From a virus: a DNA stretch of 64,000 bases. This document shows, in pieces, positions 12,896 to 42,089 of this stretch (position 1 is the stretch's first letter; every line of letters starts with the position of its first letter). Under the pieces are notes generated by a model that had not been told where the DNA came from, ran no database searches, and saw only the letters and a program-made list of their open reading frames with translations. Position numbers and translations under genes: made by a program. Location of the stretch: positions 20,395 through 84,394 of IMG/VR virus record IMGVR_UViG_3300019776_000194; one strand, written 5' to 3'.

Positions 12896-12919
12896 AATAC
12901 TCCTTCTTATTTTCGTATG

Positions 12920-12948
12920 ATTATATCATGTTTATAGTGAAATGTCAA
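12920..12948 (-). promoter_or_regulatory. Consensus sigma70 promoter inside the tail module
   Basis: TTGACA-17 bp-TATAAT on the - strand. Confidence 0.8.
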
Positions 12949-12954
12949 TCTAAA

Positions 12955-15648
12955 TTAGCCTATAGCTGTCCATCTAAATCCTACAGTTGCTGCTGCTGCT
13001 CCCGTGCTAGATGTCTGTGATTGTACAACTACGTCATAGTTACTACCACCTGTGTTTGTTACAGATGTAACAGTGATAATCTTTCCTGATGTAGCGCAAG
13101 CACTAAACCCAAAGTTAGAGTTAGGCATAGTTACAGAGATTGTTGCATTACCACTACCATCTGTTGTAGCAGCTCCACCAGCTAATGTCTTACCCCATGT
13201 TGGTGTAGAAGAACTACCTGCACTTGTGAGAACTTGTCCAGTTGTTCCTGTACTACCATTTAGGTTAAAAGGAATAGCAGAACCTGTTTCAAACTTACCT
13301 GTGAATAATTTTAGAGCATACGTAGAAGATGGAGCTGATAGTCCTAATGCACCGCCTGCAGAAGAAGTAAAACCAACTAGTTCAGTACCTGTGAAGCTTG
13401 CTGTATTAGTCACAGAGAACGCCTGAGTTGCTGCAGAGCTGCTGTCATAGACTGCAAATGCAGGTTGAAGTCCACCTCCTGTCGAAGTTCTCTCAACAAT
13501 AGCTACTCTATCATTAGTCGAATTACCTATGGTCATACTACCAACGTTTGAACTAATTACTAGAGTTGTACCGTTGTACAAAAATTTAGTACTAGCATTA
13601 CCAATCGAGAACTTATAAGAGCCTCCGTCATATCCAAGCCAAAAACCTGTGCCTGTGTTATATGCTGTTTGTCCACCTTTTACGTAACCTGCTGAGTCTA
13701 CTTCCAGTCCTCCTGTATAGACTACTAACGTTGAAAGACTTCCAACCTTGAGGTTACTCAGATAAGGAACAACCCACACTGTCTGATTTAATGTAGAATC
13801 AAATAGTGCCGTGGATTGAAACTGTGATTCACCTGTAGCCAGAGTAAACGGAGTTGTCTGCCAGTTAGCAAGCTGTGTTCCCCAATATCCGTTAGTGGGG
13901 AGATTGTCACCACTTACTGTAAGGGATGAATTAGGACTAGGAACAAATCCATTACTCACTTTTACGTAAGCAATTCTCGCCTGAGCACCTGTGGCTCCTG
14001 TTGTGCCTGTGCTACCTGTATTACTCTTAGACAAAGAGAAAATCTTATCCACTGTAAACACAGTACCAAAAGCATTTGTGTATGTTGCTCTGTATGTTAC
14101 ATTAGAGTTAGTAACACTGCTCATACCACTTGTCACACTATACTGACCTGCACTTGCACCACTTCCTACGATAGTTGTAGATAAACTGTCAGGATTAGCT
14201 TGAACAGAAAACGTACAAGATGTTGTAACATTAGCACTGCCATAATAGACGATAAAACTACCTGTTGCACTTGAGTAACTAGAAACAACGCCTGCAGAAC
14301 TAGCAGGAACTGTCACACTATCGTTTGTCAGAATACCTGATAAACTGTCAACACCCTCTCTTACTTTAATCACAGTGATTGTGTCTGCATATGTATTTGT
14401 GTTGTCAGCAACACGAATTGTTGCAGTATCTGTAGTAAGGTTAGCATATGTCAATGTAGCGTTATTACCTGCCACAGATGTAAGAGTTGCTGTACCACTT
14501 GTGACAGTGTAGTTTGCACCTGTAACATTATTAGGTTTAGCAGTGAACGTAATACTACTTGGTGTTACTGTATTGCTCTTACTAATCTGAAACACTTGAC
14601 TACTTGCAGACATTGACATTAGCAATGCATTTGAACCGTTCGTTCCATTAGTGCCATTGGTTCCAGCGTTAGACTTAGCAATAGTAAATGTTTTATCTAT
14701 CGTATATGTATTACCTAGAGGACTTGTGTAAGATGCTCTGTAAGTAACTGTAACCACAGGAGTGCCATTAGGAATACCTGCTGTGACAGAATACACACCT
14801 GTCGTTGAGCCAATTGTTGTTGTGACAGCACTGGCATTCGTCTGAACAGAGAACGTACAAGAAGTTGTTACGTCTGCAGCACCATAATACACTTTAAATG
14901 TGCCACTAGCTCCTGTGTAACTTGACACAACACCAGTGTCAGATGCTGGAAGAGTGTGAGCCTCATTGGTTAGATAACCAACAACAGCATCAATACCTTC
15001 TCTTACCTTAACAACAGTGATGCTATCTGATATACCACTACCACCACTGTCAAGTGCTCTCACTGTCACTGTGTCAGATGTCATGTTAGCAAATGTTAGT
15101 GTGGCACTATCTCCCGCAACTGATGTGAGTGTGCCTGTACCAGAAGTGATAGACCACGTTGGATTGATTGGTAGATTCTCACGTTGAGCTGTGAATGTGA
15201 CACTAGAAGGACTATTCACACCAGCTTTGCTTATCTGGAACAACTGAGATGAAGCTGTCACAACAATACTCTTTGTGGTTGGAACAGCAGTGACACCAGC
15301 ATAAATAGCTGCTTTAGCTGTAGCCACATCTGTAAACTTTTGACGGAATGTAACACCACCATTACTACCTGCTGAGAGAACAGTAATGTTAGTGAGATTA
15401 TTCCAAGCTACAGGTGTTGTCAGTGTCGCTAGATATGTGGTAAGTGCTGTGACAGCATTATCATATGTTGTTTTCTGTGTTGTCAATCCCCACTTAGTTG
15501 CTTCAGCATCAACAGATGCTTGCTCTGAAATGATATTAGCGTATGCTGTAATCCAACTAGGTTTTTCTTCAATTGACAATATGTTGTCAGAGATGAGCCG
15601 TGTTGAGGCTTGAAGAAGTACATCTCTTGCATTTACAATTGTAGCCAT
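12955..15648 (-). CDS. Tail tip / host-specificity fibre protein with internal duplication
   Basis: Two copies of an about 200-aa Ig-like block (SSQ.FQISK...KVREG.D....LTN), short G-x-x linkers, GQTAYNTGTGFWLG motif. Confidence 0.75.
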   Translation of the reverse strand: MATIVNARDVLLQASTRLISDNILSIEEKPSWITAYANIISEQASVDAEATKWGLTTQKTTYDNAVTALTTYLATLTTPVAWNNLTNITVLSAGSNGGVTFRQKFTDVATAKAAIYAGVTAVPTTKSIVVTASSQLFQISKAGVNSPSSVTFTAQRENLPINPTWSITSGTGTLTSVAGDSATLTFANMTSDTVTVRALDSGGSGISDSITVVKVREGIDAVVGYLTNEAHTLPASDTGVVSSYTGASGTFKVYYGAADVTTSCTFSVQTNASAVTTTIGSTTGVYSVTAGIPNGTPVVTVTYRASYTSPLGNTYTIDKTFTIAKSNAGTNGTNGTNGSNALLMSMSASSQVFQISKSNTVTPSSITFTAKPNNVTGANYTVTSGTATLTSVAGNNATLTYANLTTDTATIRVADNTNTYADTITVIKVREGVDSLSGILTNDSVTVPASSAGVVSSYSSATGSFIVYYGSANVTTSCTFSVQANPDSLSTTIVGSGASAGQYSVTSGMSSVTNSNVTYRATYTNAFGTVFTVDKIFSLSKSNTGSTGTTGATGAQARIAYVKVSNGFVPSPNSSLTVSGDNLPTNGYWGTQLANWQTTPFTLATGESQFQSTALFDSTLNQTVWVVPYLSNLKVGSLSTLVVYTGGLEVDSAGYVKGGQTAYNTGTGFWLGYDGGSYKFSIGNASTKFLYNGTTLVISSNVGSMTIGNSTNDRVAIVERTSTGGGLQPAFAVYDSSSAATQAFSVTNTASFTGTELVGFTSSAGGALGLSAPSSTYALKLFTGKFETGSAIPFNLNGSTGTTGQVLTSAGSSSTPTWGKTLAGGAATTDGSGNATISVTMPNSNFGFSACATSGKIITVTSVTNTGGSNYDVVVQSQTSSTGAAAATVGFRWTAIG

Positions 15649-20100: not shown

Positions 20101-22600
20101 GAAAGTTTTTCTGCTTCTTGATTTCAGCATTAATCAAATCTTCTTGGATTACTTTATTTTTAGCAATGACAAGTTGTTTTGCTTTTTCTGCCTTCACCAC
20201 ACCATCTACAGCTTGCTTATACTCTAGTTGAAGTTTTGTATACTCTTTTTCGGATTGAGTTCGTTTATCATCAACGCCATATTTTTGAAGTTCCTCATAT
20301 CTTTGCTTTAGTTCTTGTAAAGTGTTTGAGTACGCAACAGTAGAGTCTCTTAAAGATTTATATACATCGTCCCCTTTGTATTTGTCTTTTATTCCAGCAA
20401 TAATTGTATTGTACTCCGATTGCAGTATTATAAGTTTTTTTACTCCGTTTTCTTCCCGATAATACTTTTCATCAATTGCCTTAATTTCTTCCTTCATTTG
20501 ATTAGTTTTATCTAGAGACCACTTCTTTAAATCAAGAGCAAGATTTTTCTGCACTTCTGCATTTTCTACCATCATCTGAGTTCCAACACGTAGTCCATTT
20601 TGCTTAGCAGCTTCCTCTTGGATTTTGTTGTATTCAGAAGTAACTTTGGCTAGTCCAATCAATCCGTTCTTGTAGTTCTCAGACTCAGACCCTTCTCTTT
20701 TTAAAGTAGCTGCAACTTCTTGAGATTTACGAATTAGCGCATCATTAGCTTGTTCGAGTTTTGATAAGTCACTAAAATCACGAACTGTTTTTGGAATAGG
20801 TGATTCTTTAATTAGACCATTCTTCTTAGCTATGAGCATGTATTGTTGCTCTAATTCGGCTGTCTCTTGCTCCATTGACTTGACTAAAGCAGGAATTCCT
20901 TCTTTTTGTCTCTCAGCTAATTTAATAGCTTCTTCCTGTGACTCGTTGTATTTATCGTAAGCCCACTTACCAGCCATAATCACAGCAGCTAGTCCAGTCA
21001 GTACAACTCCGAGAGGTGTTGAAGCTAGAGCAATTGCAGCCTTGGCAATACCGCCTATACCATCAGCTACTTTAATTAATACATTACTTTTTACTACTAA
21101 TGAAATTCCCTCGAATAAATTTGTCAAATATGATATCAAACCACCTGCTACCAGACCTCCAGCAACAATTGAGATAGTGCCTAAATTTTGAGCAACAAAA
21201 TTAAATGCTATACCTAATGTTCTGGCAATTTTTGGAACCATATCTTCTAAGTTCCTAAGAGATTTTACCATTTCTTTAGTAAAACCTTCTTCCTTTGCCA
21301 TTTCCCCAACAGCTTTTTCCCAAGCATTTTTTAGTCGAGTCAAGGCACTGTCAAAGGTGATAGGTAGTGATTCAAAATCTTTTCTCATTTGAGGTAGAGC
21401 ATTAGCTAAAGAACGTTGTAATAATTCTCCTGTAATTTTTCCCTCCGAACCCATCTTCTTCAATGTTTCAGTTGTGTTGGCTCCCCACTGTCCTGTCCTT
21501 CTTAATTCAACTTCAATTGCCCTTAGAATGTTAGGAGAAGCTTCTGCTATAGAATTGAACTCGCCGCCATTCAACCTGCCAGCATTCATAGACTGTGAGA
21601 ATTGCAACATAGCAGAAGCTGCCTCTTGTCCTGTTGCACCAGATAACTTCAATGCAGTTCCTAGGGATTCTACCATATCTTTTGTATCTTTACTACTCTT
21701 ACCCATCATCATTAAAGGATGAGATAATCTTGTGTAAAGTTTAAGAGAATCTTCTAATGGAATTCTAATCTTCTGAGACAAGTCAAATAACTCTGATTGA
21801 GCTTTTACTGCAGATTCCTGAGAGCCTGTAGCAATTTTTAACTTAGCTTCCATCATACTCCAAGCATCTGCTTGTTTTACAATACTGCTTACAAAATTAA
21901 CACCTACATAAGCTAAAGCTGCAGTAGCCATAGAGCGCAGAGTATTAACGTAAACATTTCCTCTGGTATTAACTTCTTCTAACAGTTTTTTCTTCTTGTC
22001 AAAAGCATCATTCATCTTTAAAGCTTGCTCATGTGCTTTTACCATAGCTAACTGTTGATCTGTGACTCCTCTTGCATTTATTTTCAATGCGTTAGAAGAA
22101 CTGTCAAGAGCCTTGATACGTTCTTTTTCAGCAGCTACAGCATCTTTAGTTCTCTGAATATGCATTTCATAATCACGCTTCTCCTGTATAGCTTTTTGTC
22201 TTGACAGCTCATCTGATAGTTTTTTCTCGGCAGAAATCCTAGCATTAACTGCTTCTAAGTAAGCTTCAGTATCTCGTTTCTGTTGCACAAGTTTCCGAGC
22301 ATTTTCAGCCATAGCTAATTGCTTATTTATAGACACAGCTTCTCTGAATGATTCTACATACTGCTTTGTTGCAGCATTGTAGTTCATCATATCTAGTTTT
22401 TGCTCTTGAAGCTTGCGCTTCTTTTCTTCGTCAACAACTGCCTTAGTCGATACAGCGAGCTTCTGTTGGGCAATGACAAAAGCTTTAGTCTCAGCATCCA
22501 CAGAGGAAGCTGCTTTGGCTAAATTGATAAGGTCTGTAGTAGCATCTTTAATACCTTGCGACTTTACTACGATTGATAATTCACTTGTTGTCATTGCCAT
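17120..22600 (-). CDS. Tail tape measure protein (1826 aa)
   Basis: Tape-measure domain (AMLQFSQ...GRLNGGEFNSIAEASP), long Ala-rich helices, follows the tail chaperone. Confidence 0.93.
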   Translation of the reverse strand: MAMTTSELSIVVKSQGIKDATTDLINLAKAASSVDAETKAFVIAQQKLAVSTKAVVDEEKKRKLQEQKLDMMNYNAATKQYVESFREAVSINKQLAMAENARKLVQQKRDTEAYLEAVNARISAEKKLSDELSRQKAIQEKRDYEMHIQRTKDAVAAEKERIKALDSSSNALKINARGVTDQQLAMVKAHEQALKMNDAFDKKKKLLEEVNTRGNVYVNTLRSMATAALAYVGVNFVSSIVKQADAWSMMEAKLKIATGSQESAVKAQSELFDLSQKIRIPLEDSLKLYTRLSHPLMMMGKSSKDTKDMVESLGTALKLSGATGQEAASAMLQFSQSMNAGRLNGGEFNSIAEASPNILRAIEVELRRTGQWGANTTETLKKMGSEGKITGELLQRSLANALPQMRKDFESLPITFDSALTRLKNAWEKAVGEMAKEEGFTKEMVKSLRNLEDMVPKIARTLGIAFNFVAQNLGTISIVAGGLVAGGLISYLTNLFEGISLVVKSNVLIKVADGIGGIAKAAIALASTPLGVVLTGLAAVIMAGKWAYDKYNESQEEAIKLAERQKEGIPALVKSMEQETAELEQQYMLIAKKNGLIKESPIPKTVRDFSDLSKLEQANDALIRKSQEVAATLKREGSESENYKNGLIGLAKVTSEYNKIQEEAAKQNGLRVGTQMMVENAEVQKNLALDLKKWSLDKTNQMKEEIKAIDEKYYREENGVKKLIILQSEYNTIIAGIKDKYKGDDVYKSLRDSTVAYSNTLQELKQRYEELQKYGVDDKRTQSEKEYTKLQLEYKQAVDGVVKAEKAKQLVIAKNKVIQEDLINAEIKKQKNFQENLDALTKEADATGKSAEQQEMLLEAYGKTEGELFRLKMVKEENKLTDMAQRGLNDELLTQQQKIVDNLKRESEARDELGARKNLKDLADKYESDYQAANKKIADGLYNAIGKSGESAVKKLIQDIKSWFARLVLSPIINPISNFGASIISPNAASAQGGIGNIAQLGSTLYNSITTGFAAASAASAEAFTSFATSAFGEAIGLSSSAAAMAAETAALTGSTIGAGATTGLTAAGSMGASVASMAPYVAAAVAAFQGVKAINGGFRIGGLSADAGALLGVLPRLIGMEDKKFAPQTVTGNLGTNNLTRNQAWTQEGGLLRSDRADTWKYLLSNSTATTSDGKSYVDNPNLEADKALLNQLNSMYTAIKVTTSEYAKALGMNADSIKSRTDAINFTFGKTAEETSANVAKAFEEITNSIAKDLLGNLKELALQNESSAATMGRLATNITVTNGMFKALGYTLFDLNTAGIKASDAIVTLFGGLDKFQATAGSYYENFYKEEEKTKVKVDAVAKAMKDLGKEMPTSREAFRAMVETAQKAGNNELFVGLMKVSSAFAEVVQWAEKAAEATTAVVEKMDYTNTDQMFPDWTTLRDNLKETINDLSQTAQKWLSVSKQASDIRAQINTVLWGSEATREAAVKKSEKLWKMMASDITVEQKLSIAGELKDSIISKYQIERDSITKMIDFTKQLRTYVDGLKLGSLSPLTMTQKLAEARKQYEATLTKAQAGDTIAQGALTGSANTYLELARTAYASSDAYQAIFNSITNSLDAMNIDSRSAEEKLVAINEAQKQELIKLVIQMNTIESVAESYYTTTVNTMSSQLTVLNNLYTKMGVFDGIAVDVAGLPAELAAALSGTFGRASGADYVTALYSKFANKTGNQIDAEGMAYWTREFEIYGREYVLKSFQDSVEKVNAKAASMAPPPAATTTASNEYKLQVEDLKNEIAMMRQDAQAQTVALMNTLIETSRTNAETIVEGTQEGLDKNNPNWNKVTME

Positions 22601-33781: not shown

Positions 33782-34464
33782 GAAGCCTCCTTATAATTAT
33801 CTAACCAAACAGAATAACAGTTATCTTCACTAGGATTCCAACCTGATTTTATTTTGTTTACAACTTTCATAGCAGAGTCGGGCGTTATGCCGAATTCTTT
33901 TGCCACTGAGCGTCTTCCAATAACTTCACCCTTTGAAAACTTTGCGTAAATATCTAAAGCCAAAGACCAACAATATTTATTAGAGTGAGGATGCTCCCAA
34001 GGATTCTCAAAAGTCATGACAGCCTTACCAATTACTCTCATTCTGGCTAAGTGTTCCTCAGCTACTTTTCTTCCAGTTCTTTTACTGGCAGATTTTTGAA
34101 TAGCATCTGCTGACATTTTCTTGCCAGTATTTATAACCCTCAACTTTTCAACAGCTTCTTTAGAAAGTTTCCTTCCCTCATTCCTAGACTCACCTCCAGC
34201 ACATATATTCCATGCAATATTAGGTTTACTTCGATAAGCCCATTCTAATAAGTTACAGAATTCTGAGTCATCCTCTGCTAAAATAGTCACTTTAAAGTCG
34301 GGATGTTTTCTCATAGCATTATAAAGCGTATTTTTACAACCTTTTCTAAGCATGTGCATGTGACCGCTCATCCTTTTATTTAAAGACCTAGTAGTAACAC
34401 CTATATAGCCTTGAGTTTTTGGGTTAGTGTGATCTGGACTATGAATCCAATATAAAATTGCCAT
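33760..34464 (-). CDS. Free-standing GIY-YIG homing endonuclease
   Basis: LYWIH...GYIGVTT, R..H, WN..GG; paralog of 31667-32392. Confidence 0.85.
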   Translation of the reverse strand: MAILYWIHSPDHTNPKTQGYIGVTTRSLNKRMSGHMHMLRKGCKNTLYNAMRKHPDFKVTILAEDDSEFCNLLEWAYRSKPNIAWNICAGGESRNEGRKLSKEAVEKLRVINTGKKMSADAIQKSASKRTGRKVAEEHLARMRVIGKAVMTFENPWEHPHSNKYCWSLALDIYAKFSKGEVIGRRSVAKEFGITPDSAMKVVNKIKSGWNPSEDNCYSVWLDNYKEASCQNIAS

Positions 34465-34467
34465 TCA

Positions 34468-35979
34468 TCACCCCTTATTGTTAGCATTTTGTGCCGAATT
34501 GTCTTTTCCACCTTTATTAGATGTACTCGTACCACCATTGACAAGACCTGTCCCAACTGCCATACCCTCTGCGGAACTAGATGATTTACCTGCCAATGTG
34601 GTAGATAGGTTATCAACGTCTACTGGTGCGTTTTCATCTAAAAGTTTGAATCCACCAATTTCACGAATCTTATTCAATACGTCGCGGGTAACTTCTATAC
34701 CACCAACACTGAACACACGTTGCACAAACTTGGAGAACTCTTCTAAACTTGTAGAACTGACATCTTTAAATTTAATTTGTGGAAGCTCTGCTAAGTCCCA
34801 TCCGTTTAATGACCACAACTGCTGTACTAAATCCTTGTTCAATGCATTTGCAATTTCACCTAGTCTGTAACTAACAGCCATTGCTAGTAAATTTGTGTCA
34901 CCATCCTGTAAACTCAACGACCCAGCAGTATCACTACCCATCTTGACAGCATCACATGACAACACAGACAAAATATTTGCTTGCAATGTCTTAATGATTT
35001 CGAGTACATTATAGGCTTTACCGCCTTTGGACTCTAACAGTGATACATTGAATAGTTTGCCTTTAGTATCAGGGTCATAAGCCATTGGGAATACAATTCC
35101 TCGTTGCTGACCACTTGCTAAGTCATCTACTATCTTACGGCAAACCTCGTACATTGCTTTTTGGTCATCGGATGCGTCTGGAGCCATGTACTGCGGAGGA
35201 ATCTCTAATAGCGGGAGTCCTTGTGTATCTTTGGCAACACCTGTCATCATATTATCTGTAAGCAATGTTAGTTGCTTATAAGCTAAATATGCTGCTTTCA
35301 GGATGCTGTTACCTTCTGGATTACCATTCGTAGGGTCTACGTTGAATAGGATGAATTTCTCACGAGGGATTTTAATTAGACCATTCTCGTCCATGAGGTT
35401 AGAGAATCTATACCCATTTTCTAAGTTAGCTAGTGACTGAGATACACCGATAAGTTCTCTACCATCTTCTGAGAAGTTCCACTTTTCAATAGTAGCTTGA
35501 GGTCGTGTGCGTAATGCTTTAATACCTACAAGTCCATCGTTATACTTACTTCCGTTAGAACGTAAACGTCTGCGGTAGATTTTCTCTGAAATATGAAAGC
35601 CATATTCTAATACAGGGAAAGTGTTCTGCAATGTTTGCTGGAAAGTGTCTTCCATATCGTGCAGACAAGAATGTAAGAACTTCGCTCGTTCTCTATGCTT
35701 AGGACTATCATCAAAAGGCTCTACATACATTTCTGCACGATTCATGAGCATTCTGATAGCATTCATCCCGATAGCCACGGGAGGTGACAACCTCATTTCA
35801 TCTACTACTTTGATCCTTGCTGGCATACGAAAAGCTTGATTAGCTTCTTCGTAAATTCTGCCATTAGAAGTTTTTATTACGTTAAATCCTTGCGCACCTA
35901 ACTTAATACGTGGTATAATAGTGCCACTGTCAGGTTGCAGAGCTGTTGAAACGCCATCAGGCGAGTTCGCTTCTGGCAT
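34468..35979 (-). CDS. Portal protein
   Basis: 503 aa between terminase and protease; YGF...EKIY and NPEG.S.L motifs. Confidence 0.85.
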   Translation of the reverse strand: MPEANSPDGVSTALQPDSGTIIPRIKLGAQGFNVIKTSNGRIYEEANQAFRMPARIKVVDEMRLSPPVAIGMNAIRMLMNRAEMYVEPFDDSPKHRERAKFLHSCLHDMEDTFQQTLQNTFPVLEYGFHISEKIYRRRLRSNGSKYNDGLVGIKALRTRPQATIEKWNFSEDGRELIGVSQSLANLENGYRFSNLMDENGLIKIPREKFILFNVDPTNGNPEGNSILKAAYLAYKQLTLLTDNMMTGVAKDTQGLPLLEIPPQYMAPDASDDQKAMYEVCRKIVDDLASGQQRGIVFPMAYDPDTKGKLFNVSLLESKGGKAYNVLEIIKTLQANILSVLSCDAVKMGSDTAGSLSLQDGDTNLLAMAVSYRLGEIANALNKDLVQQLWSLNGWDLAELPQIKFKDVSSTSLEEFSKFVQRVFSVGGIEVTRDVLNKIREIGGFKLLDENAPVDVDNLSTTLAGKSSSSAEGMAVGTGLVNGGTSTSNKGGKDNSAQNANNKG

Positions 35980-36020
35980 GTTTATTGCTCCTTGTAATGC
36001 TTATTATGTTTATGGTCGTA

Positions 36021-36049
36021 ATTATACCACAAAAGTGTCTTGTTGTCAA
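36021..36049 (-). promoter_or_regulatory. Consensus sigma70 promoter for the portal/head operon
   Basis: TTGACA-17 bp-TATAAT with extended -10 TG. Confidence 0.8.
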
Positions 36050-36067
36050 GATGTTTCTGTAGTATGA

Positions 36068-37739
36068 TTATATAGTTGGTATTGGGGATGGTCTAGTAAA
36101 GGACGGTAAACTGAAGGTCGGAAGTGTGTGGGTTCGCATCAACGCCTTACATGCCGTACCAGTTGCGTCCCAATAATCGTCCTTCTGCTGTCGCTTTCCA
36201 TCTACAAAATCTTCTAATTCTGATAACAGTGGCTCAGTATCCCAACTTCCATCATCTAGAATTTTGACAAAACCTGCCTCAGCTAATGTCAAGAATGGCT
36301 GCATTCTGTGTAGTTTACTTTTTGTACCGCCAGACTTATCAATTCTTGCATCGACACCAGCTTCAATTAATGTCTTAACAAAAAACATAGTGGCTGCTTT
36401 AGCTGCTACACCTACGTCTTCAGGTAAGTACACTGCAGGTGAATGTCCTATAGCCTTATCTCTACGGTCTGTTTCTGCAATGTGTTCCATTACACCGTTA
36501 ATTAGAGACCTGTATCGTTCTCCGTGATGGATAATGTAATAGCCCGATTTTGTCTTAGACATCATTACAGATGCAGTCCAGTCAGGGTCTGGATAAGCTT
36601 CAGAAGGTAAACTACCTGCAATATCCATACCACGAACTGTTGCTACAATGTCATCAGGAAGTTCTGTAATTACTTCGCACCAATCTCTTTTAAAAAATCC
36701 TCTTGACTCTTCTTTCGCATGCCACGACCCTAAGTAGAGACGTTCACGTTCAGTGCGCTTCAAGTTCTCCAAACGAGCTACGTAGTTTGGATTCAAGATT
36801 TTCATGATGGGGTTATCTTTAACCGTAGCAGAAATATAAGTATATGTTTGAGCTTGGATTTTATCTCCATACTTCTCAATCAACTCTTCTTTTGTATCTG
36901 CTGTTACTGTCACACCGCCATAAGTAGCGTAGTATCTCTCTTTACCAGACAATTCAGGAATGGGAATACCTGTTTCCATATCTAAATACGGCTGTACGAA
37001 TTGGTAAAGGTAGGAGGCTCTTGATGGGTTAGCTGTACAGATAAGTTGGTGAGGAGCTTGTGCTTTAGAGCGAATACGAGACTCTAGGTATTTGATTTGA
37101 GTTTCACTATGCCATTGAGCTTCATCGAAACAAACTAGTGAGAATTGCCCACCGTCAAAGTTGTTAATATCCCTATCTGCTTGACACACTTTAAACTGCA
37201 CTTGTGCTCCACTTGGGAATGTGGCTGTCATCTGTGGATGTGTCTTAAACTTTGCTCCGTAATCTTTCCACATATCTTGTGCTTCCATGAACAAACCACC
37301 AGCTTGTGAAAGCTGTGTGGATGTCTCACGAATGAATACACCTCTAAAATATGGGTCGTGAATGTATTTTAGAATTAACATTAACGCTTGGTGCGATTTG
37401 CCAGAACCTGCCATCTGACGTATTCAAAAGGGGTCGTTACACCCTTCCCGCTTTATTCAAGCTGCTGAAAGTCGCCTTTCAGATTAGACTATATCTTCTG
37501 ACTCCCCTGTTTCCACTCACTTGAGTGTACGGCTTTCGCCTAGTCGTTGAACCTTCCTGCAAACAGGCTTGGCTGCGGATTGTCTCTGTGAGAGTTTCCC
37601 GCAATTGAAGGGATGTTTTTAACGTGGAGGCACAGGATTATCTACCACCACCGAATATCACGAAATTAGACTTGCAATTCAGAAACTTCCTGTGAGCTTC
37701 TGAAGCAGGTGCTAATACTTTACGTTCTTTTTTGCTCAT
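36068..37739 (-). CDS. terL: Terminase large subunit, spliced (exon 1 37739-37644, exon 2 37411-36068; 479 aa)
   Basis: Exon 1 MSKKERKVLAP...VIFGGG with AAGGAG SD joins in frame to AGSGKS (Walker A); FDEA Walker B, TANP, and RNase H-like GMDIA...DWTA...DDYWD. Confidence 0.92.
37412..37643 (-). ncRNA. Group I self-splicing intron (IA2-like, ORF-less, 232 nt) in terL
   Basis: P AAUUGCGGGAAA (37595-37606), Q AAUCCGCAGC (37572-37581), R GUUCAACGACUA (37541-37552), S AAGAUAUAGUCU (37486-37497); P1 with U.G wobble at the 5' splice site; P10; terminal G; P7.1 and P7.2 hairpins. Confidence 0.93.
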
Positions 37740-37826
37740 TTTACTCCTTTAAATTCTGATAGCACACCACACTAACCTTGCTGCTATCTTAGGAGAACAT
37801 ATCTTCTCCTCTCACCTCAAAACAAA

Positions 37827-37920
37827 ATTGCAAACAGAACGGCTCTACAACGTCACAGGAGAAAGCACGAAGGAGGAGAACGTGCCAAGGAGAATGACGG
37901 AGAGCCGTTGTATTTACAAT
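37827..37920 (-). ncRNA. Structured RNA hairpin displaying three UUCUCCU (anti-Shine-Dalgarno) motifs
   Basis: Nested stems AACGGCUCU/AGAGCCGUU, CGUCA/UGACG and GGCACG/CGUGCU; three G.U pairs favour the - strand; loops UUCUCCUU, UUCUCCUCCUU and UUCUCCUG. Confidence 0.6.
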
Positions 37921-37978
37921 CTAAAGAGGTTTATAAGGAACTCCTCAATCCTACACGATGGCTGCAACCTACGAATAT

Positions 37979-38051
37979 TGGATGCGGTCGCCTGACTTGA
38001 ACAGGACTGAAAGCTTATGAGACTTTCGTGCAACCTTTACACTACCCCGCA
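37979..38051 (-). tRNA. tRNA-Met(CAU), atypical or possibly degenerate
   Basis: D arm GTGT/GCAC, anticodon arm AAAGT-CTCATAA-GCTTT, T loop TTCAAGT, 3' CCA; two mismatches at the base of the acceptor stem and a 4-bp T stem. Confidence 0.7.
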
Positions 38052-38142
38052 ATTGTTCTTGCAGACCTCTCATCTACTCGTATGTTTTAATCTAAACATA
38101 TAAAATCAAGGGTTGGCTGATTCCATCCCATATTCTTTACAA

Positions 38143-38517
38143 TTAATCAACTTCAGCGATATTCTCAAAATCTAAAAGTGGTTGACTTTCATCATCTTCA
38201 TCATTATCATCTACAATAATACCGCCATTACGTTGAATACTTAAAAGCAACTCATGATGTTTTGCTGCAAACTCTTTATTCCTAGCTTTCTCAGCAGACT
38301 CAACTTTAATAGACTCCATGTGCATAGTCATAAGAAACTTTGCTGCTTCCATCCTATCTTTCCTACTTGCTGTAGGGTCATCTCTTACAGATACCAAGTA
38401 TGCCATAGATGGTTTATTTTCCTTGTTTAGCAATCGCTTCTGTATAGTAATCGAGTTCTTCTTGCTCTGAACACCTGTCCTTACTATCTCTCCTACTGAA
38501 TTATCTACATCACTCAT
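38143..38517 (-). CDS. Putative terminase small subunit
   Basis: First gene of the late operon, upstream of terL; helical with an acidic tail. Confidence 0.5.
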   Translation of the reverse strand: MSDVDNSVGEIVRTGVQSKKNSITIQKRLLNKENKPSMAYLVSVRDDPTASRKDRMEAAKFLMTMHMESIKVESAEKARNKEFAAKHHELLLSIQRNGGIIVDDNDEDDESQPLLDFENIAEVD

Positions 38518-38549
38518 ACATCTCCTGCTATTATTGTTCTGTTACGCTC

Positions 38550-38578
38550 ATTATACATACAAGATAGTCGTTTGTCAA
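38550..38578 (-). promoter_or_regulatory. Consensus sigma70 promoter for terS-tRNA-terL
   Basis: TTGACA-17 bp-TATAAT. Confidence 0.8.
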
Positions 38579-38620
38579 GCCCCTTGCAAGAATATTAACA
38601 AATTTCTTAGAAGAAAGCAC

Positions 38621-38649
38621 TTGATTTTATTCACTTTGGGTGCTATAGT
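38621..38649 (+). promoter_or_regulatory. Divergent sigma70-type promoter
   Basis: TTGATT-17 bp-TATAGT with extended -10 TG. Confidence 0.6.
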
Positions 38650-38681
38650 TTAATTTCTAGAAATGCTGACAAGGAAATTTA

Positions 38682-39698
38682 ATGGATAACACTATTGAAA
38701 TTACAAAACATGGAGATTGGGAAGTAGCAACAAAGAAATGTAAACTTGGGTATACTTCATGGGCAAAGAGGGGTAAAATTCAAGGAACAAATGCCGTAAA
38801 TGAAACAGGACAACATGTATGGTTCAATTTTGGTAATACTCGTGAAGAAGCTCGTAAAGCAATAACAAAAGAACTCAATATAGGAGAATAATATGGAAGA
38901 ATACACAGAATTAGAATACCTAGATGTAAACGACTTTGTAGAGCACATGCTCGAAGAAGATGAATTTGATAATTAATAGAAAGGAAACACAATGCAAGAA
39001 AAAACAATCACAGGAATGAACTTTGTACGCTTCATGCACGAAGTAGTATCAGCAGTAGAATCTGGCTATACACTCACACTGGAACCTCAACACGCTCCTG
39101 TAGGATACCCAAATTACAGTGTTACACTCGTACAATTGCAAGAGGATGAAAGCCTGTCAGTACAAGAGAAAGCAATTCTACAGGAGGTGGTAAATGAAAC
39201 TAAAGAGGAAGTTCCTGCTAAAGAAGTTCCAAATACTACTAAAGAATCTCCTGTCGAAGAAGCTCCGAAGAAACAGCAAGGACGACCTGCAAGGAAATAA
39301 AATGAAACGTGTAACGTATCGTCTTGATAACGATGTCTATGACGTTGTAGAAACTACATCAGAATGGCTACTTATCGAATACACAGACGATGATTTTAAT
39401 ACAACTCTGAAACTAGAGTCTCACAAATATAGAAAGGAAGATGACGATGGGGGCGACAGCCGTTAATGAAATCACTGGTAAGATTATTAAAAGTGGTGTA
39501 GACAATTACAAAGACTATTGTGCTAATTTTGATTTGATTGGCAGTGGTGTACAGTATAAGCAACCTGAGACATTGTTTCCAGTAACTGTGCGAATTCCTA
39601 AAGATGTGTATAAAGCTTTCACAGAATTAGCAATTGAAACTGGAACAACTTTAGAGAAGTTGTTAGAGAAACAAGTTCTTAGTAATTTTAATAAATAG
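38682..39698 (+). CDS. Small hypothetical proteins (38682-38891, 38893-38976, 38992-39300, 39302-39466, 39441-39698; the last has a possible ribbon-helix-helix C-terminus)
   Basis: Abutting ORFs with SDs; VTVRIPKDVY...LA..G.TLE.LL resembles RHH proteins. Confidence 0.6.
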
Positions 39699-39766
39699 TA
39701 TTTTGTAGTAATAGCCAAGTATGCATCAAGTGCTTGGCAGTTTAACTTTAATGTGGAGGTATCTAC

Positions 39767-40507
39767 ATGGCTCGCGTAATTAGCAAAAAAACTAAAAAAT
39801 CCCCTGAAACTGCACCTGTAATCAAAGAGAAATTCTTGGAACAGCGTAAACTTGAAATTGAAAGTAAACCAATTGTTCCGATGAACGAACGGCAAGCCGA
39901 ATACTTCAAAGCTATCAAAGACTATGATTTGATTGTTGCAACAGGTTTCGCAGGTTCCTCGAAGACATTTATTGCAACTTGTATGGCTGCAGACGCATGG
40001 CGAACAGGGGTTTGTAATAAGATTGTACTTACTAGACCCTCTGTGTCAGACTCTAAGAGTCTTGGTTATTTTGGTGGTGATAAGGACATGAAAGTGAAGA
40101 ACTGGATTATGCCAATGTTATCTGTGTTGTATCAACGCATGGGTAAAGATGTAGTTGATGAAGCAATTGCAGATGGTAATATTCAACTACAGCCTTTAGA
40201 GACAATCAAAGGGATGAGTTATGGAAGAGGTACATGGGTTATAGCGGATGAAGTCCAAGACTGCAAGATTTCTGAAATTAAGTCTATTATCACTCGTGGT
40301 GGTGGTTGCAAGATGATTTTATGTGGAGATGTTGCACAATCTGCTTTAAACAGTGATAGCGGGCTTGCCATTTTTTCAAGAATTATTGAAAAGAATCCTC
40401 GCTTAAAAGAGTCTGTGGCACGTATTGACTTTGACTCTTACGAGCATATTGTACGCAGTAAGACATGTAAAGATTTGATTATTGCATTTGATAAATCAGG
40501 GTACTAA
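39767..40507 (+). CDS. phoH: PhoH-family ATPase
   Basis: GFAGSSKT Walker A, LTRP, IADEVQD, GDVAQ and IVRS motifs. Confidence 0.9.
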   Translation: MARVISKKTKKSPETAPVIKEKFLEQRKLEIESKPIVPMNERQAEYFKAIKDYDLIVATGFAGSSKTFIATCMAADAWRTGVCNKIVLTRPSVSDSKSLGYFGGDKDMKVKNWIMPMLSVLYQRMGKDVVDEAIADGNIQLQPLETIKGMSYGRGTWVIADEVQDCKISEIKSIITRGGGCKMILCGDVAQSALNSDSGLAIFSRIIEKNPRLKESVARIDFDSYEHIVRSKTCKDLIIAFDKSGY

Positions 40508-40508
40508 C

Positions 40509-41306
40509 ATGAAGATGTCCTCCGCACAACAGAAATCTATCAAAACAAAAGCTACCTTTCTTGGAAAAACTTTTAAAAGTAAAGACTGTGGGGATTTTAC
40601 AGTATTAGACTATTTAAATTCTAAACAGGTACTCATACAATTTAATAAAACAAAGTCTCAAAAATGGTGTGAATTGAAAGCAGTCAGAAGTGGCGGTGTT
40701 AAAGACCCTAATTTCCCATCTATATACGGAGTTGGATTTATAGGAGAGGGTGAATTCTCTTCTAGATTTGTGGGCGGTGCAAATACACCGTGTTATGACT
40801 CATGGAGAGGGATGCTCAGACGTTGCTACTCTGAAGAAAGTCTTATTAAAAGTCCTACTTATGCAGGATGCTCTGTGGCAGAAGAATGGCACAACTTTCA
40901 AAACTTTGCTGCATGGTATTATGAAAACTTAAAAGGTGTATCTGGAAAAGTTCACCTAGATAAAGACATTCTCAAGAAAGGGAACAAGATTTACTGCAAA
41001 GAAAATTGCTGCCTTGTTAACGTCCAAATCAATTCATTATTTACTGGAGCTAGTATAGTAAATAGGGGTAAGTACCCACTAGGGGTGTTTCTAAGGAAAA
41101 GAAATGGAATGTTTGTTGCGCAAGTAACTAAAGGAAATGGTGCGCAGGAATTTTTAGGTGAGTATAATACACCTGAACAAGCTTTTTATGTCTATAAAAA
41201 GCACAAAGAAGATTTTGTAAAGCAAGTCGCAAACAAGTACAAAGACAGTATTAGAGAAGATGTTTATTTAGCTCTAATGAACTACACTGTCTCAATCGAA
41301 GATTAA
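40509..41306 (+). CDS. Free-standing HNH-family homing endonuclease
   Basis: W.GMLRRCY...YAGCSVAEEWHNFQNF...LDKDIL...YCKENCCLV and an AP2-like C-terminus; start chosen just after the phoH stop. Confidence 0.8.
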   Translation: MKMSSAQQKSIKTKATFLGKTFKSKDCGDFTVLDYLNSKQVLIQFNKTKSQKWCELKAVRSGGVKDPNFPSIYGVGFIGEGEFSSRFVGGANTPCYDSWRGMLRRCYSEESLIKSPTYAGCSVAEEWHNFQNFAAWYYENLKGVSGKVHLDKDILKKGNKIYCKENCCLVNVQINSLFTGASIVNRGKYPLGVFLRKRNGMFVAQVTKGNGAQEFLGEYNTPEQAFYVYKKHKEDFVKQVANKYKDSIREDVYLALMNYTVSIED

Positions 41307-41315
41307 GGAGAACCC

Positions 41316-42089
41316 ATGAAAGAAAAATTCAACAAACAATTAGCTAAGAACCCATTCTTTGACGATAACAAAGTCCCTGTTAGCTATTCTCCAAGCAAAT
41401 GTGGGCGTTTCACTGTAGACATCTATGACTATATCGAATCTCCTTCACAGTTCTCCGACATGATAGATGCCCTAGGTATGATGGAGCAAGATGATGAAAT
41501 GGTAGTTAATTTACAATCAGGTGGAGGTTGTCTTAACACTACTGATACACTTCTACATGCTCTACGTAAGACAAAGGGACAAGTTCACTTTATTGCTACA
41601 GGATTCAATGCCTCTGCTGCAACAATTCTCTTGCTGGACGCACCATCCTTTGAACTCAGTGAAGACTTCACAGCTCTGATACACTGTGGGTCGCTTGGAG
41701 ACGCTGGCAACTTAAATGAGATGCGCCAGAGTGCAGCTTTCCACATCTCACGTATGGAGAAATTGTTACGTAATACTTACGCTGGATTTATGTCTGAGAA
41801 AGAAATTGAAGACATGCTGAATGGCAAGGATTTGTTACTTGATAGTGAACAGTGGTGTGAACGACACGAACAGCGCAACAAGTGGATGCAAGAGCAAGTA
41901 GAGAAGTTCGAGAAGGCTGCTCAGAAGGCGTTAAAAGCCCCTAAGAAACCACGTAAGAAGAAAGTTGATAGTGAGGTAGCCAAAACTGATACGAAGGCTT
42001 CTGAGAGCTTTAAAGGCTTGGAAACAGGCTTTGATATGCCAGAAGAAGAGTTGATGTTTTTGGAGAAAGCTGTAAATACTAAGAAGTAA
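41316..42089 (+). CDS. ClpP-like protease
   Basis: LQSGGG, NASAATI (catalytic Ser), LIH and G.D..L motifs. Confidence 0.8.
   Translation: MKEKFNKQLAKNPFFDDNKVPVSYSPSKCGRFTVDIYDYIESPSQFSDMIDALGMMEQDDEMVVNLQSGGGCLNTTDTLLHALRKTKGQVHFIATGFNASAATILLLDAPSFELSEDFTALIHCGSLGDAGNLNEMRQSAAFHISRMEKLLRNTYAGFMSEKEIEDMLNGKDLLLDSEQWCERHEQRNKWMQEQVEKFEKAAQKALKAPKKPRKKKVDSEVAKTDTKASESFKGLETGFDMPEEELMFLEKAVNTKK

Follow-up and report, generated by a model that had tools for sequence, protein, structure and literature searches.

The 64,000-nucleotide stretch of IMG/VR virus record IMGVR_UViG_3300019776_000194 analysed here (positions 20,395 to 84,394 of the record; hereafter the window) carries a long hairpin RNA of about 98 nt on the minus strand, upstream of the DNA-packaging gene terL. 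This hairpin is a conserved, uncatalogued phage RNA element and not a chance fold. Its unpaired segments contain words complementary to Shine-Dalgarno (SD) sequences, and we tentatively favor the interpretation that it is a processed riboregulator, whose three anti-SD seeds would occlude GGAG-type ribosome-binding sites (RBSs) in the manner of the bacterial cuckoo/NfeR1 small RNAs (sRNAs). The following parts of the hairpin were distinguished:

37825-37922, minus strand: the long hairpin RNA (~98 nt), with 33 base pairs, of which 5 are G.U; its core spans 37827-37920 and the covariance-model match 37812-37925
37888-37894, minus strand: 5' side of the internal loop, UUCUCCU(U), which together with the next U is the exact complement of AAGGAGAA
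37870-37880, minus strand: apical loop UUCUCCUCCUU, including the CCUCC core, the sole loop word common to all 11 homologs
37857-37863, minus strand: 3' strand of the internal loop, reading UUCUCCU(G)
37910, minus strand: 5' partner of a C.C 1x1 mismatch, conserved
37837, minus strand: 3' partner of the C.C mismatch, 12 bp above the stem base, present in 10 of the 11 homologs
37819-37826, minus strand: U-rich tail UUUGUUUU, which adjoins or overlaps the stem at its 3' foot; not called by the terminator scan

Read from 37920 to 37827 on the minus strand, the RNA has a minimum free energy (MFE) of -38.6 kcal/mol, compared with -14.4 +/- 2.7 kcal/mol in 200 shuffled sequences (z -9.06; none of the shuffles was as good), which bears out the single long stem proposed for these positions in a preliminary description made from the letters alone. 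From base to tip, a 12-bp AU-rich stem leads to the C.C mismatch, beyond which come about 15 bp interrupted by a small bulge, the 7x7 internal loop, 6 more bp and the 11-nt loop UUCUCCUCCUU. The preliminary description had drawn an 8x8 internal loop, in which RNAfold closes one extra U.G pair; the three AGGAGAA words that it placed on the plus strand (37857-37863, 37874-37880 and 37888-37894) are exactly where it put them. On the minus strand, the apical loop and the two strands of the internal loop form three pyrimidine-only segments, each with an anti-SD word (UCUCC or CCUCC), and because all are pure pyrimidine, pairing among them is impossible. The rest of the 84-kb genome holds no similar element: among 27 candidates selected by pyrimidine runs, its own two gave -47.1 and -35.5 kcal/mol, and the others -23.4 kcal/mol or weaker.

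Homologs were collected from terL relatives in IMG/VR (21 loci, given L numbers) using BLAST and a covariance model built from five sequences, which was searched over 128 sources (L064 was excluded from the model search, as it represents the same contig as L004). Covariance-model matches were found in seven IMG/VR phage contigs, six of them (L002, L003, L004, L006, L023 and L028) at 102-122 bits and the seventh (L008) at 43 bits. A loose pattern scan of IMG/VR returned at least 107 stretches, nearly all of which are chance matches, and among the matches listed the only new true homologs after the model search were L023 and L028. A tight pattern gave five IMG/VR stretches, all on contigs already collected, and one in the JGI metagenomes, which is the contig of L023.

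The stems covary. In an alignment of eight sequences 99% of the pair cells hold standard pairs and 13 of 25 pairs have changed on both sides; the covariation score was reached by none of 500 shuffles, and when the partner was slid by 1-3 columns, pairing fell to 34-48%. The apical stem, which lies outside the model, covaries too (GGCACG/CGUGCU, CCAUG/CAUGG and UGUG/CACA). Three remoter relatives, L005, L007 and L022 (terL 62-76% identical), have hairpins of the same design in the same position, built from unrelated stem sequences; the loop is UUUUUCUCCUCCUCUCCUUA in L005 and UUUCUCCUCCCUUCUCUCCUG in L007, and the apical region of L022 contains UCCUCCUCUCC. These three hairpins were first chosen by eye and then tested with a rebuilt model (R2), and in an unfiltered search of 12 distant loci (78 kb) they rank first to third, at scores that are weak in themselves (24.3, 23.1 and 17.0 bits; E-values 0.004, 0.008 and 0.24). 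Compensatory stem changes around invariant UUCUCCU loops had been set as a test in the preliminary description. The compensatory changes and the conserved loops were found; the invariant word, present in all 11 hairpins, proved to be the apical CCUCC core instead. The internal-loop UUCUCCU holds in close relatives and drifts in L023 (AUCUCCU and UUUUCCU) and L006 (UUCAUUUC). The C.C mismatch, kept in all but one of the hairpins, is situated 9-14 bp above the base.

The functional form of the element is the RNA of the terL-sense strand, because in 11 of 11 homologs the fold of that strand is the stronger one (by 3.5-14.7 kcal/mol) and contains G.U pairs (3-7 in each). The conserved G.U pairs (GU in 7/8, UG in 6/8 and UG in 5/8 sequences) turn into A.C mismatches on the opposite strand, and under model R1 the antisense strand reaches 29-31 bits and the sense strand 102-122 bits. 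The same strand had been chosen in the preliminary description on account of its G.U pairs, of which it counted three; there are five in the hairpin extended by two base pairs. As an alternative, it was proposed there that the GGA loops of the plus strand serve as a CsrA/RsmA sponge. The plus strand of the same stretch does fold better than its shuffles (MFE -27.5, z -4.8), has AGGAGAA in its loops and lies in a packaging region, where a functional DNA site (a packaging signal or a cruciform) could also be imagined. However, the stability of the sense strand in every homolog, together with its G.U pairs, in effect rules out both the sponge and a DNA-level site, and GGA is not presented in the loops of the folded strand that would be transcribed; we regard a functional plus strand or DNA site as highly improbable.

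The loops are complementary to one of two SD dialects used by this phage. AGGAGAA was observed 45 times in the window (9.2 expected). With start sites taken from a simple gene caller in which neither dialect is favored, it precedes none of the 28 late-module starts; among the other starts, it precedes 22 of 69 within the window and 12 of 41 elsewhere in the genome. The split is genome-wide, morphogenesis genes (window 6900-37740, minus strand) using AAAGGAA and most others AAGGAGAA or GGAGG, so that both the division between non-structural and morphogenesis genes and the exact complementarity of UUCUCCU(U) to the non-structural SD sequence stand as described earlier. It is shared by the clade: in the complete records of four relatives (G001-G004), the late genes use AAAGGAA, and AGGAGAA precedes 0/23, 0/28, 0/26 and 2/21 late genes, versus 32/120, 27/112, 27/103 and 16/122 other genes, respectively. 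Calculated pairing with the loops follows the same division, with a mean of -10.35 kcal/mol for non-late start regions (79 of 110 at or below -9) and -6.95 kcal/mol for late ones (6 of 28 at or below -9; late vs non-late p 3e-8). Letter-shuffled loops reached the late/non-late difference in 4 of 200 cases and bound non-late regions more weakly (-8.21 +/- 0.15).

The order of elements on the minus strand is promoter, a 124-aa open reading frame (ORF124), a tRNA-like element and, after a spacer of 60 nt, the hairpin, which is followed by a structured leader of 87 nt and terL. Upstream of the hairpin lie:

38550-38578, minus strand: consensus sigma-70-type promoter TTGACA-17-TATAAT (12/12), from which ORF124, the tRNA-like element and the hairpin would be transcribed
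38143-38517, minus strand: ORF124, of no known family; its position matches that of the small-terminase-like gene of relatives
37983-38050, minus strand: tRNA-like element with anticodon CAU (Rfam, 35.6 bits), with two mismatched acceptor pairs
37923-37982, minus strand: spacer between the tRNA-like element and the hairpin, with a small GAGG...CCUC hairpin kept in L002, L003 and L004

The promoter was confirmed as a perfect consensus, as previously described, and a TTGACA promoter occupies the same place before the ORF124 homologs of six relatives. A scan of the window revealed no promoter-like site on the minus strand between 38550 and 37922, and the hairpin thus has no promoter of its own. 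ORF124 matched no Pfam or PHROG family, and by position only it is the counterpart of the small-terminase-like gene slot. The tRNA reported upstream of the hairpin was recovered in part: the element is detected by Rfam alone, and ARAGORN called no tRNA over the window.

In all homologs the hairpin is located between two DNA-packaging genes, on the terL strand and upstream of terL, and in 8 of 10 relatives a homolog of ORF124 precedes it. The terL alleles of two relatives (L028:2065-3483 and L023:2839-4242) are only 32% identical to that of the window; despite this swap, ORF124 (68-92% identical), the portal gene (80% identical) and the hairpin are kept. The spacing between hairpin and terL varies, from 87 nt to over 1 kb, and in three relatives (L005:2030-2650, L006:1981-2912 and L008:1948-2900) an ORF, absent from the window, lies between the two; with its repeated ...KYDYS...C..HG.F.Q...H..G.GC..C modules, its product looks like a homing endonuclease. 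A tRNA is present within 200 nt of the hairpin in 7 of the 11 homologs, and in four the two adjoin within about 6 nt: the hairpins of L002, L006 and L022 start a few nt after the tRNA 3' end, and that of L007 ends 5 nt before a tRNA, the first of four that follow it before terL. This adjacency means that tRNA-processing cleavage would set one end of the RNA and, in L007, would sever the hairpin from terL; RNase P-type cleavage is likely at the tRNA-abutting hairpins of these four relatives, judging from their arrangement. The release by tRNA processing suggested in the preliminary description is supported to this extent. In more distant relatives (terL ~50% identical), canonical GC-rich terminators occupy the hairpin slot (L012:269-313, L013:2549-2593, L011:233-278 and L009:1818-1864), followed in L012 and L013 by a UUGGAGAAGG box.

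From these observations we infer a pathway in which the hairpin would be co-transcribed with ORF124 and the tRNA-like element from the host-type promoter at 38578 and then excised from the precursor by tRNA-processing enzymes and/or RNase III/E; alternatively, the U-rich tail would leave it as the 3' end of the precursor. The freed hairpin would accumulate as a stable RNA, whose three redundant seeds would pair in the cell with GGAG-type sites, that is, the AAGGAGAA sites of phage non-structural genes and possibly host sites, and occlude them for translation, while morphogenesis genes with AAAGGAA-type sites would pair poorly and be spared. The retention of the loops while the stems changed wholly (L005, L007 and L022) counts in favor of such a riboregulator. 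The public sequencing runs listed for this sequence are six DNA runs with small shares, with no RNA run among them.

A bolder version of the proposal is that the hairpin is a translational timer, which, cut from the tRNA precursor, would build up during infection and, with three seeds in each molecule, block GGAG-type sites of the host and of early and middle phage genes, the AAAGGAA morphogenesis genes having evolved to escape it; we consider this version doubtful. T4 RegB is a protein endoribonuclease that inactivates the GGAG-type RBSs of early mRNAs, and late genes escape it. The timer would follow the logic of RegB, with an RNA in place of a protein nuclease, and if it is true, one small RNA would enforce a whole-genome partition of SD "dialects" as an RNA counterpart of RegB. 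The "late" timing on which the preliminary description relied is an assumption, as the driving promoter is of the host-type consensus. Host-type promoters are found within the "late" module as well: another perfect TTGACA-17-TATAAT promoter, this one extended by TG, is present at window 36021-36049 (minus strand), inside the 3' end of terL and immediately ahead of the portal gene.

The preliminary description knew of no such RNA as a phage timing mechanism; this kind of regulator is nevertheless not new, multi-seed anti-SD sRNAs having been described in bacteria. According to the sections of the original report concerned with their structure, the cuckoo/alpha-r14 sRNAs (RSs0680 = CcsR1-4, NfeR1; Rfam RF02344) consist of 2-4 adjacent hairpins of 24-50 nt with CCUCCUCCC in each loop, and are encoded by alphaproteobacterial chromosomal loci, with variable stems, compensatory changes and fixed loops (PMC4615179). 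The portion of a second report devoted to NfeR1 states that its three redundant anti-SD motifs silence mRNAs at start regions in reporter assays (PMC10746234). Set beside these sRNAs, the phage hairpin is alike in having several anti-SD words in unpaired loops and variable, compensated stems around fixed loops. It differs in being one hairpin of ~98 nt, whose symmetric internal loop holds two seeds and whose apical loop holds the third, and in its loop words (UUCUCCU, UUCUCCUCCUU and UUCUCCU), which share only the CUCCUCC/CCUCC core with CCUCCUCCC. It is also, unlike them, phage-borne, tRNA-linked and placed inside a packaging operon. Rfam cmscan (E <= 1) of window 34000-42000 and the loci of six relatives gave only tRNA, a group I intron and two chance-level matches, with neither RF02344 nor C4 among them. 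On paper the hairpin would act as the cuckoo/alpha-r14 sRNAs do, but it falls outside their family; regulators of this kind are already known in bacteria, and the hairpin itself has no matching Rfam family.

Among phage RNAs, the c4 antisense RNA of P1 and P7 is released by RNase P. A review describes it as a phage RNA produced from its own operon transcript, whose loops pair around an RBS and block translation (PMC12197685). The complementarity of c4 is specific to one target (ant) and extends beyond the SD sequence, in contrast to that of the hairpin, which appears to be limited to the generic SD word. The RNA cut from the 3' external transcribed spacer of leuZ is released from a tRNA precursor, keeps a terminal hairpin and sponges other sRNAs; it lacks the anti-SD loops found here. 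As in sRNAs derived from tRNA precursors or 3' untranslated regions, the hairpin lies downstream of a gene and a tRNA-like element in the same unit and has no promoter of its own. In PAK_P3, a distantly related ~88-kb myophage, ncRNA1 and ncRNA2 are processed noncoding RNAs (ncRNAs) without their own start sites and abundant late in infection, as stated in the passages of the report that cover them (PMC10914365). The PAK_P3 annotation places them between the small-terminase-like gene, tRNAs and terL, with ncRNA2 beginning just after tRNA-Tyr and upstream of terL; they thus share the genomic slot of the hairpin and provide a precedent for processed RNAs in it. Their folds contain no pyrimidine-loop hairpin, and model R2 finds nothing in that region.

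Four cultured Pseudomonas phages, ventosus, UAVern, Y1-MI (vB_PF_Y1-MI) and Bitten, carry a promoter followed by a hairpin with the 12-nt loop UUCUCCUCCUUU, directly before a terS-like gene (L161:7900-8010, minus strand, corresponding to about 12900-13010 of MG018930.1; also L162, L163 and L164). The loop is invariant in the four phages save for one deletion in Y1-MI, and both stems show compensatory changes. Model R2 found no match in PAK_P3, in these four phages or in the Curvibacter and Limnohabitans stretches, and the Pseudomonas-phage hairpin therefore counts as analogous in design and not as a demonstrable homolog.

Several observations weigh against the riboregulator proposal. A generic anti-SD word separates late from other genes nearly as well as the loops do in three of the four relatives, which means that the loops may be a plain copy of the anti-SD sequence without selectivity for a gene class; in the fourth (G004, p 0.21), neither the loops nor the generic word discriminate. 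The internal-loop UUCUCCU is absent from L008, L005, L007 and L022. Phage ventosus shows no split, GGAG sites being present before 21 of 36 late genes and 79 of 120 others, and such a split is thus not a general companion of hairpins of this design. With a host-type promoter, synthesis of the RNA would begin as soon as infection does, very high abundance would be needed for a single-copy RNA to titrate many mRNAs, and the constant location of the element inside the packaging operon would fit a local role in cis too.

Such a cis-acting role is possible, though we give it a lower probability than the riboregulator. The hairpin would then remain part of its own transcript or act beside it, as a processing and stability signal of the packaging operon, and its loops would pair locally with the RBS of ORF124 or terL, keeping the packaging proteins low and balanced. 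Its constant terL-sense placement between an ORF124 homolog and terL, even in the terL-swapped L028 and L023, agrees with this, as does the leader position directly before the terS-like gene in the four Pseudomonas phages. There are candidate local partners: the ORF124 site CAGGAGA, kept in five relatives, is complementary over 7 bp to the 3' strand of the internal loop and its closing G, and AAGGAG of terL pairs over 6 bp with CUCCUU, which is present in two loops. The c4 RNA of P1/P7, cut from the operon that it controls and acting through its loops on a downstream RBS, is a precedent, as described in that review (PMC12197685). However, pairings of 6-7 bp are generic for any SD sequence, the ORF124 site of L003 (CAGGGGA) is not accompanied by a matching loop change, and three loops exceed the need of a single local target. 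The variable distance to the terL start (87 nt to >1 kb) also speaks against local control, as do the homing-endonuclease-like ORF intervening in L005, L006 and L008 and the four tRNAs of L007, whose processing would sever the hairpin from terL.

We consider it unlikely that the hairpin is a protein-binding or decoy RNA, in which the pyrimidine loops would imitate a pyrimidine tract or the 3' end of 16S rRNA, with the C.C mismatch as part of the recognition surface; the partner would be a host or phage protein in place of mRNA, candidates being ribosomal protein S1 or a factor handling the anti-SD tail. The best hint in its favor is that mismatch itself, which mRNA pairing does not explain and which all homologs but one (10 of 11) retain, 9-14 bp above the base. 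The apical CCUCC core as sole invariant word would also fit, and sponge RNAs typically display several copies of the motif of a protein in their loops. On the other hand, ORF124 and its neighbors match no RNA-binding family, and outside the CCUCC/UCUCC core the loop words vary beyond what is usual for a protein site. It is improbable, in our judgment, that the structure is an ordinary terminator or RNase III hairpin ending the ORF124-tRNA unit, with loops that are incidental, e.g., relics of SD-rich DNA on the opposite strand. A run of U4-5 at the 3' foot (9 of 11 homologs, read by eye from the printed sequences) and the canonical terminators in the same slot of relatives with terL ~50% identical point in this direction, and a coaxial stem of ~26 bp suffices for RNase III. 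However, the terminator scan did not call the hairpin, which is AU-rich at its foot and departs from the pattern of an intrinsic terminator, in which a U tract follows a short stem rich in GC and closed by a small loop; large loops weaken terminators. The U run is missing in L005 and L007, and in L007 tRNA genes follow. Loop words conserved amid complete stem turnover are the reverse of what incidental loops would be expected to show.

The terL leader (37745-37822, minus strand) contains a conserved purine box, UUGUGGAGAR or GAGGUGAGAGG, also found in L003:1150-1200, L006:1820-1880, L022:2680-2740 and L028:1650-1730. On its 3' side lies a small hairpin, AGGAGAA-GAUAUG-UUCUCCU in the window and, with compensated changes, AGGAAGA-GACAUG-UCUUCCU in L003, which in both encloses an AUG, two codons and a stop; a second leader hairpin has the conserved loop AAGGUAGUGUGG. 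The purine box (UUGUGGAGAR / GAGGUGAGAGGAGAAG) was rejected as a conserved partner of the loops: the window, L005 and L022 allow such pairing, L003 and L006 do so only poorly, and L002 lacks the box. It was also rejected as a recurrent late promoter, having no repeats before the other late operons. A pyrimidine triplex with the leader hairpin AGGAGAA/UUCUCCU was discarded by reasoning, the orientation being wrong. Downstream of the leader, terL is split by a group I intron (37465-37666, minus strand; Rfam, 74.3 bits) after a first exon of 33 codons (37739-37641), and the unrelated terL allele of L028 contains a group I intron-like match (L028:1821-2016; 44.9 bits, under the gathering score).

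The source of the window is an 84.4-kb IMG/VR record of an uncultured, freshwater-type phage. Its terminase, portal and capsid proteins are about 40-44% identical to those of Pseudomonas PAK_P3-like phages, Limnohabitans phage DC31 and Curvibacter phage P26059A; by capsid, the nearest cultured phages are DC31 (44%) and P26059A (41%). Concerning the host, a terL search across species genomes gave only two contigs of metagenome-assembled genomes (51% identity), one of them binned as Pedobacter, a match too weak to name a host, and an atlas look-up of the ribonucleotide reductase returned viral clusters only.

Taken as a whole, the interpretation offered in the preliminary description is partly supported. 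Literature searches found no published phage anti-SD RNA, with the ncRNA tables of PMC10914365 (Table S7, Figures S5-S7), which lay outside the search, being a place that could hold candidates.

Regulators with multiple anti-SD seeds are known from few bacterial lineages. To our knowledge, phage-encoded trans-acting RNAs that act broadly on translation are almost unknown. Small stable RNAs in phage tRNA clusters are an old observation from T4. They were recently confirmed in PAK_P3, in the passages of that report dealing with its ncRNAs (PMC10914365). The element described here offers a testable function for these unexplained RNAs, and the analogous hairpins of four cultured Pseudomonas phages make the idea open to bench testing. 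If true, the proposed regulation would be a new route by which lytic phages reallocate ribosomes, and would explain why the morphogenesis genes of this clade avoid the GGAG word common to most of its other genes.

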